Of a DNA stretch of 64,000 nt, positions 1-56,724 are shown piece after piece (the stretch's first letter is position 1; each line of letters begins with the position of its first letter). The notes beneath the pieces are model-generated. The model was given only the letters and a program-made list of their open reading frames with translations. It had not been told where the DNA came from and ran no database searches. Source of the stretch: an uncultured Eubacterium sp. (GTDB lineage Bacteria; Bacillota; Clostridia; Lachnospirales; Lachnospiraceae); the NCBI GenBank assembly GCA_945946665.1, contig CAMEWO010000010.1:1781-65780 (forward strand), in the 5' to 3' direction. A program made the position numbers and the translations under genes.

Positions 1-2388
1 GAAGCAACCGAGCAGGGTGAGTACGTTTCTACCATAAACTGCTTAAAGGAAATCGCTCTACAACAAATGATCCTAACCAAAAAGCAGTACGGCAAAGAGA
101 ACGGATATATTGCTTGGCACGGTTATCAGAGCTTTAAGCCGGATGAGGTTACGGCAAAAGAAGCACACGAAATCGGGTTGCAGACCGCAAGAGAAATGTG
201 GGGTGATCGGTATCAAATAATCGTTACTACCCACCTTGACAAAGACCATCTGCACAATCATTTCTGCTTCAATTCCGTGTCCTTTATTGATGGCGGCAAG
301 TATGTTTACTCGAAAAAAGAATGGTGGAGATTGATGCAAGTGTCTGACCGCATCTCTGCTGAACACGGCTTGTCGGTTATCAAGAACCCACACAAAGCAC
401 CCACAAGACAAGTATGGCTTGATGAGAAAAGCGGTAAATCTACCCGTTACAATGTATACCGTGAGGATGTGCGAGAAGCCATTGATTACAGCCGAAGTCC
501 AAAATATATCGAAGAATATTTGCAGAGAAAAGGATATATTACCGACTTCACGGGTAAGCATTGGAAGATACGATTGTCGCAGTACCAACACTTTACAAGG
601 CTTGATACCCTCGATGAGAGATGGACTCCCGAAAACCTAAAGTGGTCGATTGGCAGATACGCTTCTTTCGGTAGCAGACGGGCATATATCTCTTATCCCA
701 AAGATATGCCGCAGGACTTAAAGGATTGGTTTCAGCCATTCCACCATACAAGCCATATATACCGCTTGTCCCGTGATGACGAGCAGGAAGGCATTTCGGG
801 CAGTATTAAAAATCAGCAATCTATACTTGAGAAGTACGCTAAGGACAATGGCTTTAAGAACGCCCGTGTATTCGTGGATGACGGTTGGTCGGGAACGACT
901 TTCGCAAGACCTGCCTTCACCGAGATAATGGAACTTGCCGAAAAAGGAATGATTGGTACACTTATCGTAAAAGACCATTCCCGTCTTGGTCGTAACCGCT
1001 TGGTTGTCGGTCAGTTGTTGGAAGAAGGCTTTGATAGCTTGGGTGTAAGATATATTGCTATTATGGATAATATCGACACCGCAAAAGGTATCAGCGACCT
1101 TGTTCCAATGCAAGACCTATTCAACGAATGGCACGCTAAAAACACAAGCCAAAAAGTCCGCAACGTTTTCAAAAACAAAGGTATGTCGGGTGTACCGCTT
1201 ACAACAAATCCGCCTTTCGGGTATATGAAAAATCCCGATAACACAAAGGAATGGATTATAGACGAAGAAGCGGCAAAGACCGTCAGACAAATCTTCACCC
1301 TATGTGTTGAAGGACTTGGACCGACACAGATCGCAAAGCGGCTCAAAGCCGCAAAGATGCTGACACCTACGGAATATTGGATTAGCATCGGCAGAAATTG
1401 CAGTAAACCGCCCGCCGTTCCGTATAATTGGTGTTCGGCAACTGTGGCAGATATTCTTTCAAAGCAGGAATACTGCGGAGATACGGTCAACTTCCGAAGC
1501 ACGACAAAATCCTTTAAGAACAAAACGAAAATCGAAAGACCGCAGGAAGAATGGAAAATCTTCCCGAATACTCATCCGGCAATCATTGACCGAGAGGTGT
1601 TTGATTTGGTACAAGAGCTACGGCAACACCGCCGCAGACCTACCAAAAGCGGAATTGTCAGTTGGTTTTCGGGACTTCTCTACTGTGCAGATTGCGGAGA
1701 AAAATTGTATTACAGCGTAACAAACAACTACAAACGGGAGCAAGCGTATTTCTTTTGTTCTTCGTTCCGCAAAAACTCCGATGAATGTTCCGCCCACTAT
1801 ATTCGTGAAAAGGTGGTAATGGAAAATGTATTGGAAAGTATGCGGCGCATCTTACTGAACGTGCAAGCCTTTGAAAAGGAATTTGCCCGTAAACAGATGG
1901 AATGTTACAGTGAGGATAAGAAAAAAGAGCTTGCGGAGAAACGCCGAGAGCTTAGCAAGGCAAAGAAGCGTATCGCAGAGATTGACGGTTTGATACAGAA
2001 ACTCTACGAAGATAACGCTATCGGTAAAATATCCGATGAACGCTATGCCACCTTGTCAATGTCCTACGAGGAAGAACAGCGGGACTTAAAAGCTGCACTT
2101 CCTGATATGGAAACCTATCTCGAATCTGAAACGGACAAGACCGAGAGTTTACAGAGATTTATTGATAAGGTCAAGCGGATAACGGAACTCAAGGAACTGA
2201 CCGCCGAGTTAGTACACGAATTTATTGATAAAATCGTAGTACACGCTCCGAGATACCTTGACGGCAAAAGAGTTCAGCTCATAGATATTAACTACAACGG
2301 CGTTGGCATACTCCGAGAACTCACTCCTGAAGAAATGGAAGAATCGTTCCAAAAGCATATGGCGGAACGCAAAGCAAAAACGGCATAG
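1..2388 (+). CDS. In-frame fusion of MOBP-type relaxase (N-terminal, 5'-truncated by window) and TndX/TnpX-like large serine recombinase with DUF4368-like tail
   Basis: Frame is open from base 1. Relaxase motifs HGYQSF and THLDKDHLHNHFCFNS are followed at ~760 by YRLSRDDE...VDDGWSG (serine recombinase catalytic domain), a recombinase domain and a CADCG..C..C zinc ribbon. Confidence 0.85.
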   Translation, partial: EATEQGEYVSTINCLKEIALQQMILTKKQYGKENGYIAWHGYQSFKPDEVTAKEAHEIGLQTAREMWGDRYQIIVTTHLDKDHLHNHFCFNSVSFIDGGKYVYSKKEWWRLMQVSDRISAEHGLSVIKNPHKAPTRQVWLDEKSGKSTRYNVYREDVREAIDYSRSPKYIEEYLQRKGYITDFTGKHWKIRLSQYQHFTRLDTLDERWTPENLKWSIGRYASFGSRRAYISYPKDMPQDLKDWFQPFHHTSHIYRLSRDDEQEGISGSIKNQQSILEKYAKDNGFKNARVFVDDGWSGTTFARPAFTEIMELAEKGMIGTLIVKDHSRLGRNRLVVGQLLEEGFDSLGVRYIAIMDNIDTAKGISDLVPMQDLFNEWHAKNTSQKVRNVFKNKGMSGVPLTTNPPFGYMKNPDNTKEWIIDEEAAKTVRQIFTLCVEGLGPTQIAKRLKAAKMLTPTEYWISIGRNCSKPPAVPYNWCSATVADILSKQEYCGDTVNFRSTTKSFKNKTKIERPQEEWKIFPNTHPAIIDREVFDLVQELRQHRRRPTKSGIVSWFSGLLYCADCGEKLYYSVTNNYKREQAYFFCSSFRKNSDECSAHYIREKVVMENVLESMRRILLNVQAFEKEFARKQMECYSEDKKKELAEKRRELSKAKKRIAEIDGLIQKLYEDNAIGKISDERYATLSMSYEEEQRDLKAALPDMETYLESETDKTESLQRFIDKVKRITELKELTAELVHEFIDKIVVHAPRYLDGKRVQLIDINYNGVGILRELTPEEMEESFQKHMAERKAKTA

Positions 2389-2490: not shown

Positions 2491-2530
2491 CTTACTTATT
2501 TTGCGATAACCCACCTGTAGTTTCAGTTTG

Positions 2531-2970
2531 CAGCAACACCATTTTTTACACCAACACAGTGGTTTATGCCTAAACTGGTCCGATAGGGCAGGGTTTACTG
2601 GAATTCGGAGTTTGTCTGGGTGTCCGGCTGCTTATGGGGTTTAGAACTGCTAATTGGGTAAATACAATTGGAACTACGAAGAGAATCATCAGCGCTGTGG
2701 CATGTATGAATTACACTCGCTTATTTCAGCAATGGTTCAAAACTCAGCCCTACGGGCTTCAAACAGTTGCCCCATTGCTGGCGAAGTGTAATCCAACATA
2801 CCCCACCGCTTGTGATTTCTTCTAATGTTCCAATTGTATTTACCCAATTAGCAGTTCTAAACCCCATAAGCAGCCGGACACCCAGACAGACTCCGAATTC
2901 CAGTAAACCCTGCCCTATCGGACCAGTTTAGGCATATACTACTGTGTTGGTGTAAAAACTGGTGTTGCTG
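2531..2970. repeat. Giant palindromic element A (144-bp arms around a 152-bp core)
   Basis: 2531-2674 is the reverse complement of 2827-2970 with 4 mismatches; core 2675-2826. Confidence 0.95.
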
Positions 2971-3133
2971 AAAGTTATACCCTTAGTAAATTAGCATAAT
3001 ATTTTGAGAAAAATGGTTAGTGTTTCTGCTCTTTGCTGTCACTTTCGACAGATGATGTAGTGGCAGGCTGAGTCAGAACTTACTGGGGTGGGTGGGGTGT
3101 TCTTGCATTTTTGTTGTTTTGGAAGAGACAGTA

Positions 3134-3630
3134 GTAACTGGCTGAGCAGGATTTAACGGAAGTATGGCCGGTCTGCACCCTTATATAAAAAGTCACATTT
3201 AGAAGAAATCTTAGCGCTGCGGTGTGTATGGATTACACTTCGCCAGCAACTGTACGGATTATGGTAGTCCAGGCTGTACCCTTAAATAGAAAAAAGTCAC
3301 ATTTAGAAGAAATCTTAGTGCTGCGGTGTGTATGGATTACACTTCGCCAACAACTGACCGATTGTTTGAGTCCCGACAGGGGCGAGTTGAAGGGAAGTTG
3401 TTGAAATAAGCGAGTGTAATCCATATACATCGCAACACTTAGATTCTCTTCGTCGTGACTTTTTTCTATTTAAGGGTACAGCCTGGGCTGCCACAATCCG
3501 TGCAGTTGCTGAAATAAGCGAGTGTAAGACATATGCGTCGCAACGCTTAGATTCTCTTCGTCGTTCCAGGAAGGCAGCATATGTAGGTACACACAGGCCA
3601 TACTTCCGTTAATTCATGCCAGCTGGTTAC
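3134..3630. repeat. Giant nested palindromic element B (B-spacer-B-loop-A'-spacer'-A')
   Basis: B units 3187-3245 and 3291-3349; A' units 3403-3464 and 3511-3564; 45-bp spacers 3246-3290 and 3465-3509 complementary with 4 transitions; perfect 17-bp outer IR 3153-3169/3596-3612. Confidence 0.95.
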
Positions 3631-3691
3631 GGCAGGGATTGTCGAAATGACGTAAGGATGTAAGAACATGGGGCGGAAAGTGCGATTGTGC

Positions 3692-3719
3692 TTGACCTTA
3701 ACCTTGTTTTCGGTATAAA
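3692..3719 (+). promoter_or_regulatory. Possible sigma-A promoter for the GH13 operon
   Basis: TTGACC-16-TATAAA about 110 bp upstream of the start. Confidence 0.35.
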
Positions 3720-3825
3720 ATTATGGTGTATGAGGCTATACTGTATCATGAATGGTGCAGCAAAGGGTGGAAGTGAGAAATTGCGCAGACTGGCGTAGTT
3801 TTATCCCCCTAGAAATGAGGAATTT

Positions 3826-5937
3826 GTGAAAATAGTTAAATGGATCAATTCTCTTGATGCGAATGAAAAGAAACTTTTATATATGTGCAATACACGTCCT
3901 GTTTTAAAGCCAAGGGCGTTGTATTCTGATGGAACAGGAGATTACAGAATACCTGCGGAGTGTGAACCATGGGATACTGTAAGGCTCAGGCTCAGAACCG
4001 GAAAGTTTAATATTGATAAGGCATATTTGTATGTGGATAATGAAGAATATCCAATGGAGCGTGTTGAATCAGATACCTATTTTGATTACTATGAGGCATC
4101 TGTGGAGGTTGGAGAGGCACCTGTCTCATATTATTTTAAGGTAGTTGGTGCAAAGTCTGTTGTGTATTACTATAACCAGATTGGTGCGGCAAAGGAGCTT
4201 AACCCATATTATAATTTCCAGATTTATCCTGGACACAAGGTTCCAGAATGGATTAAAGGAGCAGTAATCTACCAGATATTTGTGGACAGATTCTGCGACG
4301 GAGATAAATCTAACAATGTGCTGGATGATGAGTATTCTTATATTGGTGAGCATGTTGTACAGGTGCAGGACTGGAACAAATATCCTGCTTCAATGGGTGT
4401 TAGAGAATTTTATGGCGGTGACCTTAAGGGAGTATGGGACCAGCTTGATTATCTGCAGAGTCTGGGCGTGGAGGTTATATATTTTAATCCCCTTTTTGTA
4501 TCTCCATCTAACCACAAATACGATATTCAGGACTATGACTATATTGACCCACACTTTGGAGTTATCGTTGATGATGAGGGTGAACTTCTGGGTGAGGGAG
4601 ATATGGATAATACCCATGCAACAAGATATATTAACAGGGTTACCAACAAGAAGAACCTGGAAGCAAGCAACGCATTTTTTGCAAAGCTTGTGGAGGAAAT
4701 CCACAGAAGAGGCATGAAGGTCATAATTGACGGAGTGTTTAACCACTGTGGTTCCTTTAACAAATGGATGGACAGAGAACATATATACAGCAACAGCAAT
4801 GAGCAGTATGAGGCTGGTGCATATGAAAAATATGAGAGTCCATACCACAGCTTCTTTAAGTTTTATGGAGACCAGTGGCCTGATAATGATTCATACGATG
4901 GATGGTGGGGACATGACACACTTCCTAAACTTAATTATGAGGAGTCAGATAAGCTGGAAGAATATATAATCAACATTGGAAAGAAATGGGTATCTCCTCC
5001 TTACAATGTAGATGGCTGGAGATTAGACGTGGCAGCAGACTTGGGATACAGCCAGGAATATAACCATGAATTCTGGAAGAAGTTCAGAATTGCTGTAAAG
5101 GAGGCAAATCCTGATGCGGTAATTCTTGCTGAGCATTATGGTGACTGTCACAGCTGGCTTAGCGGCGGCGAGTGGGATACTATAATGAATTATGATGCAT
5201 TTATGGAGCCTGTAACATGGTTCCTTACTGGAATGGAGAAACATTCTGATGAATACAGGCATGATATGCTGGGAAATGCAGGTAATTTCTTTGGTGCGAT
5301 GCATCACGGAATGTCAAGGATGGGCAGCCAGGCAGTATATACTTCTATGAATGAACTGTCAAATCATGACCATTCAAGATTCCTTACAAGAACTAACCAT
5401 ATTGTGGGACGTACAGCATCTGTGGGACCACTGCGGGCTTCGGAAAATGTTAATAAGGCCTGCTTTATGGAAGCAGTAGTGATGCAGATGACATGGCCTG
5501 GTGCACCTACAATATATTACGGTGATGAGGCTGGTGTATGTGGCTGGACAGATCCAGACAACAGGCGGACTTATCCGTGGGGACATGAGGATCAGGAACT
5601 GATAAGATTCCATCAGGATATAATAAAACTCCATAAGGAATGCAGTGTGCTGCAAAACGGCTCATACAAGGAACTGGTTTCAGAATATAATCTGCTGGCT
5701 TATGGCAGGTTTGACAGGAATGATATATTAGTTGTTGTTATTAATAATTCAGACGATGAAAGACGTGTATCCATACCAGTGTGGGAGTTAGGTATGCCTA
5801 CGGATACTGATATGGAACAGATATTTGTAACTTATGATGGGGGATACAGCACGCAGAGACTTTATTATTCTGTCAATGACGGATGGATTAGTCTTGGTAT
5901 GAGAAGACATTCCTCTCTTGTGCTTCGCAAAGCGTAG
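3826..5937 (+). CDS. GH13 neopullulanase/cyclomaltodextrinase-like alpha-glycosidase with N-terminal CBM-like domain
   Basis: GH13 regions DGVFNH, GWRLDVA, AEHYG, SNHD; YQIFVDRF and YYGDEAG. Confidence 0.9.
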   Translation: MKIVKWINSLDANEKKLLYMCNTRPVLKPRALYSDGTGDYRIPAECEPWDTVRLRLRTGKFNIDKAYLYVDNEEYPMERVESDTYFDYYEASVEVGEAPVSYYFKVVGAKSVVYYYNQIGAAKELNPYYNFQIYPGHKVPEWIKGAVIYQIFVDRFCDGDKSNNVLDDEYSYIGEHVVQVQDWNKYPASMGVREFYGGDLKGVWDQLDYLQSLGVEVIYFNPLFVSPSNHKYDIQDYDYIDPHFGVIVDDEGELLGEGDMDNTHATRYINRVTNKKNLEASNAFFAKLVEEIHRRGMKVIIDGVFNHCGSFNKWMDREHIYSNSNEQYEAGAYEKYESPYHSFFKFYGDQWPDNDSYDGWWGHDTLPKLNYEESDKLEEYIINIGKKWVSPPYNVDGWRLDVAADLGYSQEYNHEFWKKFRIAVKEANPDAVILAEHYGDCHSWLSGGEWDTIMNYDAFMEPVTWFLTGMEKHSDEYRHDMLGNAGNFFGAMHHGMSRMGSQAVYTSMNELSNHDHSRFLTRTNHIVGRTASVGPLRASENVNKACFMEAVVMQMTWPGAPTIYYGDEAGVCGWTDPDNRRTYPWGHEDQELIRFHQDIIKLHKECSVLQNGSYKELVSEYNLLAYGRFDRNDILVVVINNSDDERRVSIPVWELGMPTDTDMEQIFVTYDGGYSTQRLYYSVNDGWISLGMRRHSSLVLRKA

Positions 5938-5952
5938 AAAGGTGGTAAACAG

Positions 5953-6837
5953 ATGAGTAACGATAAGGAAACAAGACCAGAGATTAAGCTGAACCGTAAG
6001 ATGAGAATGTGGAATAAATACAGAATTTTCTGTATTATTGCAGCTGTAATTCTTGTGGTTGTTATAGTGGTAGTGGCAGCTGTTAAGGGAATTACAGGAG
6101 GTAAGAATAAGCAGGTTGCTGAGAATCCTACCCCAAGCCAGGGACAGAGCCAGACTTATGTGCCTGAGGCAACAACCACGGCAGGTGAAACAACAGGAGC
6201 AGAACAGACAACAAAGCAGGAGGAGACAACAACTACCCAGGCTGCACCATCTGGAAGTGGACTTAAGCTTAGTGGTTCTGCGGAAGCTGAGACATTTACA
6301 AATAAGGATTATTATTCAGATACAGTATTTATGGGAGATTCTGTTATATCAGGTATTGAGAGCTATGGATACCTTAATAATGTTGTGGGAAATGTGAATG
6401 CCACAAGTGGCAAGCTGGAATCTTACGTTAATGAGGCCATGAAATCTAACCCTTCGAAGGTATTTATTATGGTTGGACATAATGATGCCAACTATGGAAC
6501 AATAAAGGAAGAATCTCTTGCTTCTAATATTACTGATATTGTAGCAGCAATTCATAAGAAGAATAGTTCAACCAAGGTATATGTTTTATCAATTACACCA
6601 ATTACATCTGCATATGAGAATAAGTCATCTAATAATGTAAAGCAGTCTTATATTGATAAAGCCAACAGCCTTATTGAGGAGAATGCTTCATCAGGAAAGT
6701 ACACGTATGTAGATGTTGCATCTGCATATAAAGATACTAATGGCTATATGAAAACAGATTGTACAGGTAATGGTATTAACCTTAAGAATAGTTATTATCC
6801 ATTTCTTCTTAATGGCATTGCTGAAGTAGTAAAGTAG
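5953..6837 (+). CDS. Membrane-anchored SGNH/GDSL hydrolase-like protein
   Basis: N-terminal TM helix, T/Q-rich linker, FMGDSV and VGHND blocks. Confidence 0.7.
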   Translation: MSNDKETRPEIKLNRKMRMWNKYRIFCIIAAVILVVVIVVVAAVKGITGGKNKQVAENPTPSQGQSQTYVPEATTTAGETTGAEQTTKQEETTTTQAAPSGSGLKLSGSAEAETFTNKDYYSDTVFMGDSVISGIESYGYLNNVVGNVNATSGKLESYVNEAMKSNPSKVFIMVGHNDANYGTIKEESLASNITDIVAAIHKKNSSTKVYVLSITPITSAYENKSSNNVKQSYIDKANSLIEENASSGKYTYVDVASAYKDTNGYMKTDCTGNGINLKNSYYPFLLNGIAEVVK

Positions 6838-6855
6838 TTTAAGAATGGAGTGACA

Positions 6856-7566
6856 ATGAATTTTCACGTATTAACCCTTTTTCCAGACATGATTACACAG
6901 GGGCTTAACACCAGCATAACAGGAAGGGCTATTGAGAATGGTCTTGTTTCTATAGAGGCAGTTAATATCAGGGATTATTCAACTGATAAGCATCTTAAGG
7001 TGGATGATTATCCATATGGTGGCGGTGCAGGACTGGTTATGAGGGCTGACCCTATATGCAGGGCATATGATGCAGTTGCTTCCAGACTGGATAAGAAGCC
7101 AAGAGTGGTATATATGACTCCCGTAGGATATACATTTAACCAGAACATGGCAAGGGAGTTTGCCCAGGAAGAAGAACTGGTTATTCTCTGCGGACACTAT
7201 GAAGGAGTGGATGAGCGGGCGCTTGAGACAATTGTGACAGATTTCGTCTCTATAGGTGATTATGTGCTGACAGGTGGAGAACTGGCAGCCATGGTAGTTA
7301 TTGATGCGGTGTCACGGCTGGTTCCAGGGGTACTTCATAATGATGAGTCTGCTGTTACAGAGAGCTTTGAGAATGGTCTTCTGGAATATCCACAGTATAC
7401 ACGTCCTGAGGTTTACAATGGAATGGCAGTTCCGGAGGTTCTGCTTTCAGGACACCATGGCAACGTGGATAAATGGCGGTTGGAGCAATCCCTTCAGCGC
7501 ACTAAGAAGTACAGACCAGATCTGTATGAGGCATATATGGAGCGTACTAAGAAAGATAAAGCTTAG
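6856..7566 (+). CDS. trmD: tRNA (guanine37-N1)-methyltransferase
   Basis: VDDYPYGGGAG, LCGHYEGVDER, SIGDYVLTGGE, LEYPQYTRP. Confidence 0.97.
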   Translation: MNFHVLTLFPDMITQGLNTSITGRAIENGLVSIEAVNIRDYSTDKHLKVDDYPYGGGAGLVMRADPICRAYDAVASRLDKKPRVVYMTPVGYTFNQNMAREFAQEEELVILCGHYEGVDERALETIVTDFVSIGDYVLTGGELAAMVVIDAVSRLVPGVLHNDESAVTESFENGLLEYPQYTRPEVYNGMAVPEVLLSGHHGNVDKWRLEQSLQRTKKYRPDLYEAYMERTKKDKA

Positions 7567-7568
7567 AA

Positions 7569-8282
7569 ATGAGGATTAAAATGATTAATTCTTATGTAGC
7601 ATTAGATATTGAGACAACGGGGGTTAATCCTTCCCTTGATAAAATTATTGAAATTGGAATGGCTAAGGTTGTTGACGGAGTAGTGGTTGACAGCTTTAGC
7701 TCTCTTATTGACCCCAGAACTTCCATCAGTTCAAGGATTACAGAACTTACAGGGATTACTGATGAGGATGTGAAGGGAAAACCTGTTATTGACAGTGTTA
7801 TTGGTTATATTGTGGAATTCACGGAAGGGTTTCCTTTGCTGGGACATAACATTATATTTGACTACAGCTTTATAAAGAAGGCTGCTGTCAACAATAAAAT
7901 AGAATTCGAGAGGGATGGGATTGATACCCTGAAGATGTCACGTAGATTGCTTCCTGATATGCCGCACAAGGGACTGGAGTATCTCTGCGGACAGCTGGGA
8001 ATTAATCCGGGACATTCCCACAGGGCATATGATGATGCGCTTAGTGCCATGGAGTTGTATAACAGGCTGTATGATATTAATCCGGAGGATAGCGGGTTTA
8101 TGCAGCCTGTTAAACTTGTGTTTTCTGTTAAGAAGGATACACCTGTTACAGCAGCCCAGATAAGGTATCTGTATGCACTGCTGGCGAAACACAATCTGTC
8201 GGTTGATGAACCGGTTGAAAGTCTTACAAAAAGCAAGGCAAGCAGACTGATTGATCAGATTATTTCCCAGTACGGCAAGTGA
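7569..8282 (+). CDS. DEDDh 3'-5' exonuclease (DnaQ/PolC-epsilon-like)
   Basis: ALDIETTG, GHNIIFD, HRAYDDA. Confidence 0.9.
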   Translation: MRIKMINSYVALDIETTGVNPSLDKIIEIGMAKVVDGVVVDSFSSLIDPRTSISSRITELTGITDEDVKGKPVIDSVIGYIVEFTEGFPLLGHNIIFDYSFIKKAAVNNKIEFERDGIDTLKMSRRLLPDMPHKGLEYLCGQLGINPGHSHRAYDDALSAMELYNRLYDINPEDSGFMQPVKLVFSVKKDTPVTAAQIRYLYALLAKHNLSVDEPVESLTKSKASRLIDQIISQYGK

Positions 8283-8311
8283 GCCCCTCATGTCAGCAGC
8301 ACTTAGTAAAA

Positions 8312-8599
8312 CCTACGATAGGTATGCGTGGATTATGGCAGTTCGACTGTACCCTTAAGTAGAAAAAAGTCACGACGAAGAGAATCTAAGCGTTGCGACG
8401 CATATGAATTACACTCGCTTATTTCGCGACCGCTCTCCAACTCGCCCCTGTCGGGGCTCAAACAATCCGAGCAGTCGCTGGCGAAGTGTAATCCATACAC
8501 GCCGCAGCGCTAAGATTTCTTCTAAATGTGACTTTTTTCTACTTAAGGGTACAGTCAGAGCTGCCGTAATCCACGTATACCTATCTTATGTATCGTAGG
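8312..8599. repeat. Giant palindromic element C (arm-A-loop-B'-arm')
   Basis: 8317-8373 pairs with 8528-8585 (3 transitions, 1 indel); A unit 8364-8425, B' unit 8479-8537. Confidence 0.95.
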
Positions 8600-8879
8600 C
8601 TGTATGTGCGTCTGGCTGCTTACGGGACCTAGGGCTGCTGAACCGGTAAATGCAATTGGGACATTAGAAGAAATCACAAGCGGTGGGGTATGTTGGATTA
8701 CACTTCGCCAGCAATGGGGCAACTGTTTGAAGCCCGTAGGGCTGAGTTTTGAACCATTGCTGAAATAAGCGAGTGTAATTCATACATGCCACAGCGCTGA
8801 TGATTCTCTTCGTAGTTCCAATTGCATTTACCGGTTTAGTAGCCCTAGGTCCCATAAGCAGCCAGACACATATACAGCC
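8598..8879. repeat. Giant palindromic element D (65-bp arms; core is the exact reverse complement of the core of A)
   Basis: 8598-8662 vs 8815-8879, 6 transitions; core 8663-8814 equals the reverse complement of 2675-2826. Confidence 0.95.
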
Positions 8880-8943
8880 GGGCAGGCATATACGCAGGCT
8901 CTGCGAAGTGTTGCTGTTGCCACTGAGGCTGCATGGATGTTGG

Positions 8944-9552
8944 TCAGTTGTCAAGGCTTAAGAGAATGGAATCCAGTTTGGATATAATTGGTTTTTTGGT
9001 CAGGGAATCAAGAGATTCTGCCACACTTATCAGATTCTGGATTTTATCTTTATTGCCGTTAGAAGCATAGTATTCGGCTAGCATGGTATAATTCTGGGTT
9101 ATGTCGGTGCGGCAGCTGATGCCGAATTCAAGGTAGGCGGCAGCCTCATCTGTTAAACCTGCTTTATTTAATTCGGTAGCAAGGGGAATGATGGATTTTA
9201 ACATCTGGGTGCAGTTATCATCATATTCTGATAATGCATCAAGATTTGCAGCGCCGTAGGCTGTTTTCAGGTCGGTATTGCTTTTTCCTGTAAGATTAAG
9301 CATTTTTTTGCCTTTGAATGCGTAGAAATTATTAAGGGCTTTTATAACGGCATCATTACAGTCAGACATAGGAAGACTATCAGGGATTGTAATGTAGCTT
9401 AAGCCGGATATATCTTTCCTGCGGACGGTATTTGCCTCTCTTTCCCTTTTCCAGAAGTCTTTGTTCAGTTCTTCGTGCTTTTTTGAATTTTTCCTAAGAA
9501 AGAATTGAAAGATTGCAAGTAATATTATAAAATATGGCAATACGAGTTTCAT
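8944..9552 (-). CDS. Hypothetical protein with N-terminal membrane anchor and TPR-like helical tail
   Basis: 202-aa ORF, hydrophobic N-terminus, RBS-like aggag upstream. Confidence 0.7.
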   Translation of the reverse strand: MKLVLPYFIILLAIFQFFLRKNSKKHEELNKDFWKREREANTVRRKDISGLSYITIPDSLPMSDCNDAVIKALNNFYAFKGKKMLNLTGKSNTDLKTAYGAANLDALSEYDDNCTQMLKSIIPLATELNKAGLTDEAAAYLEFGISCRTDITQNYTMLAEYYASNGNKDKIQNLISVAESLDSLTKKPIISKLDSILLSLDN

Positions 9553-9839
9553 GAAAATCTCCTAAATTATTGTTATATTTGTTATATGTTATATTTGTTT
9601 TATATTATTTTTGGCTGCAGGGCAGCAGAAAGGCTTGTTTATGATTAATTTTAACAGCAAAAAGAATAAAAAGATACTTCTTTCACTGGTTATTGTACTG
9701 GTTCTGGCAATGATTGTTCCTATGGTAGTATCGGCAGTCAGTGCATTTATGTAATGTAATATACTCTAAAAATGGAAGTTATGCAAATATATATGGCTTT
9801 GCCAGAAATGGAATTAAGTCATGGGTAAACCATTAGGGA

Positions 9840-56147: not shown

Positions 56148-56724
56148 ATTATAAAGCAAGTGCAGTGGTTGTTGGTGGAAAACTGACAACCACTGATTTT
56201 TTTGACTAAAGGACGCATGGTACCTGCATACTTAAATTGAAAAAGTCACTACGAAGAGAATCTAAGTGTTGCGACATATATGAATTACACTCGCTTATTT
56301 CAGCAACTGTTTTCACTATGGCGATTTGGGCCACACACTTGAATAAAAAAAGTCACTACGAAGAGAATCTAAGTGTTGCGACATATATGAATTACACTCG
56401 CTTATTTCAACAACTGCCCGACAACTCGCCCCTGTTCGGGGCTCAGACATTCGTGCAGTTGTTGGCGAAGTGTAATCCATACACGCCGCAACACTAAGAT
56501 TTCTTCTAATGTGACTTTTTTTATTCAAGTGTGTGGCCCAAATCACCATAGTGAAGGCAGTTGTTGGCGAAGTGTAATCCATACACGCCGCAGCGCTAAG
56601 ATTTCTTCTAATGTGACTTTTTCAATTTAAGTGTGCAGGTACTATGCTGTTTATTCTGGAAAAATTAGTGGTTGTCAGTTTTTCTCAGTAGCCCTTATTT
56701 GGTTTATAATTTAGTTTTCTTCAT
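56134..56724. repeat. Giant nested palindromic element E (A-spacer-A-loop-B'-spacer'-B'), arms extending into the thrS 3' end
   Basis: A units 56240-56301 and 56347-56408; B' units 56463-56520 and 56565-56622; outer IRs 56215-56249/56613-56647, 56177-56201/56660-56684, 56134-56155/56703-56724. Confidence 0.95.
56163..56203 (+). terminator. thrS intrinsic terminator
   Basis: cagtggttgttggt-ggaaa-actgacaaccactg followed by a and T7. Confidence 0.75.

Follow-up and report, generated by a model that had tools for sequence, protein, structure and literature searches.

Palindromic repeats with a conserved tip and self-complementary, diverging arms in an uncultured Eubacterium sp.: probable shaping by arm-to-arm copying and core conversion

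Elements A and D are two long palindromes lying 6 kb apart, in inverted orientation, in a 64,000-nucleotide stretch of DNA (the window) from an uncultured Eubacterium sp. of the Lachnospiraceae (assembly GCA_945946665.1, contig CAMEWO010000010.1, positions 1,781 to 65,780 of the forward strand). Each has a core, which forms the tip of a hairpin, and two flanking arms. The core of A (2675-2826) is the exact reverse complement of that of D (8663-8814) over 152 bp, and the homologous arms of the two elements are 25% diverged yet paired each with its own partner. Both belong to a family of palindromic repeats which has probably been shaped by copying between arms, ectopic conversion of cores and deletion by slippage. 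A and D themselves are best read as diverged paralogues whose cores, we infer, were recently homogenised by ectopic gene conversion.

With the matching flanks of the core, 10 nt at one end and 2 nt at the other, the identical tract amounts to 164 bp in all (2665-2828 versus 8661-8824). Among 820 pairs of cores in the genome this is the only one at 100%; the next stands at 98.1% and the median is 83%. Over the inner 65 nt of the arms, the left and right arms of A differ at one position and those of D at six, all of these being transitions, whereas the arms of A differ from the arms of D at 15-18 of 65 positions. Four-way alignment of this segment reveals that at about 12 of some 20 variable positions, transversions among them, both arms of A differ alike from both arms of D; seven to eight positions are single-arm differences and none is specific to one arm side. 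The whole alignable arm contains 19 such concerted sites (13 transitions and 6 transversions). The elements are paralogues along their entire length, to the common CAGCAACAC terminus, and the 5′ arm of A finds no other match in the genome than its partner arm and part of D. Repeat finding independently recovers the arms of both elements (inverted repeats I1, I2 and I6), and A as single-stranded DNA (2520-2980) folds into a single rod (-207 kcal/mol; z-score -33). Contigs from an isolate-like sequencing run and from an independent pig-gut metagenome agree with the arms and with their junctions to the core at every position, yet break inside the core. The initial annotation of this DNA had described the 152-bp identity and arms that differ at 16 of 65 positions while carrying one (A) and six (D) internal mismatches; the identity proved even longer, and the recount brackets the first figure and returns the same mismatches. 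The observation is thereby confirmed and lies far beyond chance.

Searches with nhmmer and a covariance model revealed 41 full copies of the core, together with split halves, in the 2.45-Mb genome. The copies are polar, scoring approximately 150 bits on one strand versus 50 on the other. Their alignment describes a long hairpin with invariant unpaired motifs: a six-nucleotide bulge (TTATTT), a GGCGAAG side, an apical module in which AACTC and TCARAC flank a hairpin, and both termini of the core. Variation in the stems is compensated: 96% of the cells are paired, 20 of the 48 pairs have changed on both sides, and no shuffled or slid control came near the observed pairing. The invariant bulge and loops indicate that a trans-acting factor reads the core, and they also point to selection on its sequence.

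Nearly every core is the tip of a palindrome of 214-623 bp, the arms of which are about 92% matched within each genome, and conservation falls outward from the core. Roughly half of the copies carry a common S-type arm of about 57 nt beside the core, with an A-run and a T-run placed around the hairpin. The others, including A and D, have only about 10 nt in common (...AATTGGAAC), beyond which their arms are without a match in the genome; the outer arms of some 20 copies match nothing else there. Six doubles of about 395 bp, 85-93% identical and including locus B of the window, carry a unit of S arm, core and S arm in place of the apical module of an outer core. Nested copies are always located at the apex and in the same orientation as the outer core. 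The family consists of non-coding, rod-like palindromic repeats with a conserved tip and with arms that have little or no conserved sequence, and we place it among the bacterial intergenic palindromic repeats (reviewed in PMC2229807) as a novel form of these. In the window, Rfam 15 at the gathering threshold gave no matches, and only two chance-level ones were seen at E<1; no tRNA or tmRNA was found in the search. Two of the 51 genomes of the genus contain the family by covariance model, this one and a sister species represented by a pig-gut "Eubacterium sp." metagenome-assembled genome (MAG). When bacteria and archaea were scanned for exact patterns, with each species represented by one genome, the family turned up in only one other assembly, "uncultured Eubacterium sp." CALZFR01, and it was not found in the viral contigs or the phage and plasmid collections searched. 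It is carried by 16 metagenome contigs, and the public runs holding the region are pig-gut samples.

Evidence that the arms copy one another comes from seven loci held in common with the sister species. Sites at which the two arms of one species share a difference from the two arms of the other, here called concerted, number 84 at these loci, against 27 arm-specific and 81 single-arm sites. Between the species the arms diverge by 13-33%, compared with 92-98% identity in the flanking genes; among strains of a single species the arms hardly change. At C1:351422, however, this genome has five clustered arm mismatches, all of which are resolved toward the partner arm in a metagenome strain (L087), and this is one conversion tract of at least 35 nt. 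In the nested copies C3:91208 and C16:14818 the right half of the outer core is a perfect inverted copy of the left half, and the asymmetry of the bulge that is usual in the family has been lost. The arm mismatches are resolved toward one arm, in tracts and without strand bias, as in template switching at quasipalindromes or conversion between inverted repeats. Counted on the sense strand they comprise 81 G.U, 61 A.C and 79 transversions, and because they lack the wobble bias of RNA, copying at the DNA level is favoured over selection on RNA pairing. A separate observation concerns the sister species at the locus of C19:42831, where the left arm (L066) differs by about 30% from its own right arm while the right arm matches both arms here; this could be an arm that was replaced before being copied across, or an assembly problem.

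The cores exchange between loci. At four of nine orthologous loci the core of the sister species is 78-87% identical to its orthologue versus 90-95% identical to a paralogue elsewhere. C32:339 and C2:136835 are single copies in this genome and nested doubles in two metagenome strains, the arms and outer core halves around the swapped segment being 99-100% identical. Where the replaced segment ends within the conserved core differs between the two loci, as is predicted by homology-dependent conversion and not by a site-specific enzyme. Different contigs carry cores of 95-98% identity whose arms are unrelated beyond about 30 nt. Since cores move between loci independently of their arms, the pattern at A and D is an extreme case of behaviour that is general in the family. 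Both halves of the inference drawn in the initial annotation are thus supported by data from outside the window. Its proposal that changes pass from arm to arm agrees with the predominance of concerted over arm-specific sites and with the conversion tract, whereas the alternative it offered, selection for pairing, is disfavoured to the extent that pairing of RNA is meant; its view of the core as homogenised is backed by the replacements and by the tip swaps between strains, and the invariant loops and bulges point toward the strict sequence selection that it named as well. The annotation had not placed the pattern in a dispersed family confined to one lineage and bound by a strict rule of position and orientation.

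The palindromes also grow and decay. At C37:14838 the palindrome takes in the last 27 nt or so of the gene beside it, and these recur inverted across the element, in its left arm. The C-terminus of this gene is conserved in relatives without the element, from which it follows that local DNA was the source of the far arm; arm-to-arm copying, this suggests, can extend a palindrome until constrained sequence is reached. Three sites at which the sister species has an element, and which might have been pristine insertion sites, are all deletion derivatives here, formed between direct repeats of 4-5 nt and retaining arm-only hairpins. Several other origins were considered and set aside. Captured DNA does not account for the arms, no copies of which occur elsewhere in the genome or in the phage and plasmid collections; nor was significant similarity to the downstream sequence of relatives found at C37, as ancestral 3′ untranslated region (UTR) would require, relatives at only 75% identity making this a weak test. 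Insertion into terminator loops fits one locus, and most elements have no T-run after them. The inner arm ends depart from the R-box consensus of integron attC sites, by eye and with no integrase search made. In relatives without the element (L103-L105), an unusually long terminator-like hairpin of about 55 nt lies some 15 nt past the stop codon, 3′ of the orthologue of C37:15098-16381, in the position that the element occupies in the carrier species.

In the account that we favour, one arm of an element repeatedly templates the other, so that the arms drift at about the neutral rate yet stay complementary; the comparative data show this copying. Enzymatically, it may proceed by intramolecular template switching at the hairpin in replication or repair, or through recombination of one inverted arm with the other. 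For imperfect inverted repeats, mutation by template switching is well established in E. coli (PMC7202029, PMC6357072). Copying can also continue beyond the palindrome, which then grows into the DNA around it, as in the one clear case. Between elements, the conserved cores provide homology for ectopic gene conversion, which overwrites a core or exchanges a tip for a nested arm-core-arm unit and leaves the outer arms untouched, as is seen at other loci; the cores of A and D would have become identical by a recent event of this type. Slippage across the hairpin deletes cores, and the arm-only remnants observed are left behind.

Several points weigh against this account. The inner arms at C6:18012 are about 50% different between the species and the outer arms are conserved, which is hard for homology-driven conversion. 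The cores at C11 and C37 appear flipped between the species, which may be assembly ambiguity in the MAG. The assembly of the sister species is without locus A and is broken inside D, and thus provides no direct evidence on the A/D event. Growth into ancestral sequence is clear at C37 only; at a further candidate, C6, the last residues of the gene are not conserved in relatives. Nor can the arms be taken for decayed older cores, since their similarity to cores does not exceed that of shuffled controls, except in one true outer core. Lastly, conversion alone does not explain invariant loops with varying stems, nor the colonisation of at least 25 unrelated loci and the strict orientation, and these together imply a further factor. 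We also put forward, as a tentative and rather doubtful possibility, that the hairpins are selfish DNA without a transposase of their own. The conserved tip would spread among existing copies by homology-driven conversion and nest in itself; the arms would arise and be extended on the spot, through hairpin-templated synthesis that draws on the DNA nearby; and the seeding of new loci would depend on a step, strand-specific or coupled to transcription, at the 3′ ends of genes, which, if true, would account for the sense-only rule described below.

In 37 of the 41 cores the nearest sizeable open reading frame (ORF) on the 5′ side is co-oriented, and the palindrome begins at a median of 33 nt past its stop codon. 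The copy adjoining the 3′ end of a gene is in sense orientation in 25 of 25 informative cases (singles between tandem genes, gene-proximal members of pairs, both members between convergent genes, and three extra sites of the sister species), and adjacent pairs of elements are arranged (+,-) in all ten instances. The flanking genes are ordinary housekeeping genes. Such a distribution would suit structured RNAs of the 3′ UTR (stabilisers, terminators or processing sites) in which pairing is kept by compensatory mutation and the core by purifying selection, as would the invariant loops and bulges, the covariation in the stems, the A-run and T-run flanking the hairpin in S-type arms, and two metatranscriptome contigs, one running from the exonuclease gene upstream of element C into C and another covering the left arm of A. 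We nevertheless consider this explanation quite unlikely. The missing wobble bias and the removal of clustered mismatches in one tract speak against it; selection on each base pair should be negligible in a stem of 100-150 bp, yet the arms are about 92% matched; and purifying selection cannot yield 0 differences in 152 positions when other paralogous pairs differ at variable stem positions. Restriction to two of 51 genomes of the genus is not that of a conserved regulatory RNA, there is no Rfam match, and a consensus scan detected no canonical terminator inside A-D, that is, no short GC-rich stem with a loop of 3-8 nt and a T-run directly after it. The RNA evidence derives from contigs and could be carry-over of DNA. 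Terminator-like activity of the S-type arms is possible, as is an RNA-level role of the elements, on the sense-only rule and the two contigs that enter A and C.

It is likewise unlikely that the core, with or without short inner arms, is a non-autonomous transposon moved in trans which recently entered the tips of the older hairpins A and D, nesting being a preference for the apex. Near-identical cores dispersed on different contigs, nesting always at the apex in one orientation, unpaired conserved motifs that suggest recognition by a protein, and presence in only two species, as in a recent burst, are all congruent with this idea. The enzyme was not located, however. The 99.95% complete genome has no match to Y1/RAYT (PF01797), for which control genomes gave matches, to TnpB (PF07282) or to reverse transcriptase (PF00078); neither an IS200/IS605-derived palindrome-associated element, which would have TnpA or TnpB and subterminal hairpins of ~20 nt, nor a retroelement derivative is indicated. 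No multicopy insertion sequence (IS) was found in the genome, and its sole IS110-family gene is unlinked to any copy. There are no widely separated core halves around an ORF and no version of the element with an ORF. [quoted passage not shown] Conservation does not extend to the outer termini, and the palindrome ends, which are fuzzy, showed no direct repeats such as target-site duplication would give, the polymorphic "empty" sites all being deletion derivatives. No unoccupied arm-only S-type hairpins, which might have been pre-existing targets, were found in the search, and the two nesting polymorphisms have different end points. That the exact identity of the two cores is an artefact of short-read assembly, through bubble popping or collapse of near-identical repeats, is very improbable. 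The 164-bp tract is about one short-read length and all public contigs break inside the core; both copies, however, lie in one contig with distinct arm-core junctions that are independently reproduced (X1, X6, L083), the core has no variant letters among the matches listed from two DNA runs, and other members of the family were assembled with their differences intact. The contrast with 25% diverged arms would stay even with a few hidden differences. Arm copying and core conversion are the probable explanation of A and D.

The coordinates of the features in the window are collected in Table 1. The left arm of D has an outer continuation at 8296-8320, from which it is split off by element C; C is absent from this arm in the sister species, which at locus B has a simple, un-nested core. 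Metagenome contig L083 confirms the region from B through C at 99.6% identity. The genes of the block at 3826..8282 encode an alpha-amylase family protein, a GDSL hydrolase, TrmD and a DEDDh exonuclease. All four are likewise found together, without hairpins, in relatives at 75% identity, and the spacer downstream of the block is about 80 bp in these versus 660 bp here, where it is filled by C and D. The fifth member of the family lies 3′ of a gene of 588 amino acid residues. On a contig of the sister species (C41; L075) synteny with 8880-9600 breaks at D; the gene matching 8944-9552 is present, followed by different genes and not by D.

Table 1. Coordinates of the repeat elements, and of one block of genes for context, in the window.
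Feature	Position	Strand	Basis or remark
Element A, 5′ arm; locus-specific U-type, inner end ...AATTGGAAC	2528..2674	+	97% complementary to 2827-2973
Element A, core; polar hairpin of ~150 nt	2675..2826	+	Reverse complement of 8663-8814 without a mismatch; nhmmer and covariance-model searches place it in the family
Element A, 3′ arm	2827..2973	+	Repeat finding; single-stranded DNA fold
Element B, nested double	3146..3619	-	Repeat finding; family search
Element B, outer core halves	~3199-3259 and ~3490-3561		
Element B, S-type arms	3244-3300 and 3455-3511		
Element B, inner core	3303-3453		
Element C, S-type single copy within left arm of D; core 8375-8525	8317..8585	+	Family search
Element D, arm on the left side of the window	8598..8662	-	Repeat finding; sister-species comparison; four-way alignment
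Element D, core; identical to core of A	8663..8814	-	Sequence comparison
Element D, arm on the right side of the window; unbroken, homologous to arm of A up to shared CAGCAACAC terminus	8815..8925	-	
Fifth locus, nested double; inner core 56358-56509	56251..56611	+	Family search
Four-gene block between A, B and C, D	3826..8282	+	Pfam; context, outside the elements

The left end of the window (1-2388) is occupied by one open frame encoding a relaxase nuclease domain and then a complete large serine recombinase with Resolvase, Recombinase, zinc ribbon and DUF4368 domains. Contigs of two DNA runs have a different sequence to the left of 2429, about 40 nt past the stop codon of the recombinase at 2388, and one RNA contig differs to the left of 2475. 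From these contigs it appears that the serine-recombinase element may be absent or excised in some cells or strains, which suggests a right boundary for it roughly 100 nt before element A. Elsewhere, an ORF of 337 amino acid residues without a Pfam domain is found in four copies of 86-93% DNA identity (C2:91502-92620, C23:2832-3959, C15:8109-9221 and C46:1057-2227), none of them near a hairpin element. A stretch of 11.5 kb directly after the element at C5:50561 (C5:50805-62307) is missing in the metagenome strain represented by contig L081; a strain-specific island thus abuts the hairpin.

The nearest concept is that of the REPINs, doublets of repetitive extragenic palindromic (REP) sequences which form hairpins and are mobilised by RAYT transposases (PMC3116915). 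Like the present family, they are non-coding extragenic hairpins in tens of copies per genome, with higher-order clusters and largely vertical inheritance (PMC3116915), and they too keep the hairpin as some of the sequence changes, on the two sides alike. REPINs are about 100 nt in length; conserved REP sequences form their base and a spacer that varies forms their tip, whereas here the tip is conserved and the base variable, and two inverted REP sequences at the hairpin base around a variable spacer were not found. They depend on a RAYT gene, a class absent from the present genome, and our elements differ further in being 214-623 bp in size, nested, and strictly oriented to the upstream gene. 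The MITE-like palindromes (ERIC/IRU, Correia/NEMIS, RUP, BOX and bcr1) are also small, non-autonomous intergenic repeats with long hairpins, often co-transcribed with their neighbours and with longer variants that carry internal insertions (PMC2229807). The present family shares no sequence similarity with these, has no Rfam match, conserved terminal inverted repeats or visible target duplications, and has fuzzy palindrome ends; its locus-specific arms, recursive nesting in its own apex and occurrence in two species only set it further apart. Template switching at quasipalindromes in E. coli is comparable in that one arm templates the other and mismatches become perfect pairs, sometimes several at once (PMC7202029, PMC6357072). 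Those cases involve short laboratory reporters of tens of bp, while here the process would be a long-term force on natural arms of 60-240 bp and would possibly lengthen the palindrome too.

We know of no family that combines a conserved tip on free-running arms, recursive nesting and strict sense orientation after a stop codon without a recognisable enzyme. For palindromic repeats between bacterial genes, the usual explanation is either a transposase dedicated to them or selection for the folding of RNA. The present family provides an unusually clear natural record of a third force, that is, copying between the arms of a hairpin and between tips at different loci, and the events can be dated because a sister species and several strains hold the same loci in different states. 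Discovery of the trans-acting factor or of the seeding step could bring to light a new means by which non-coding DNA spreads, and the family could serve as a model of how long palindromes survive in bacterial chromosomes.

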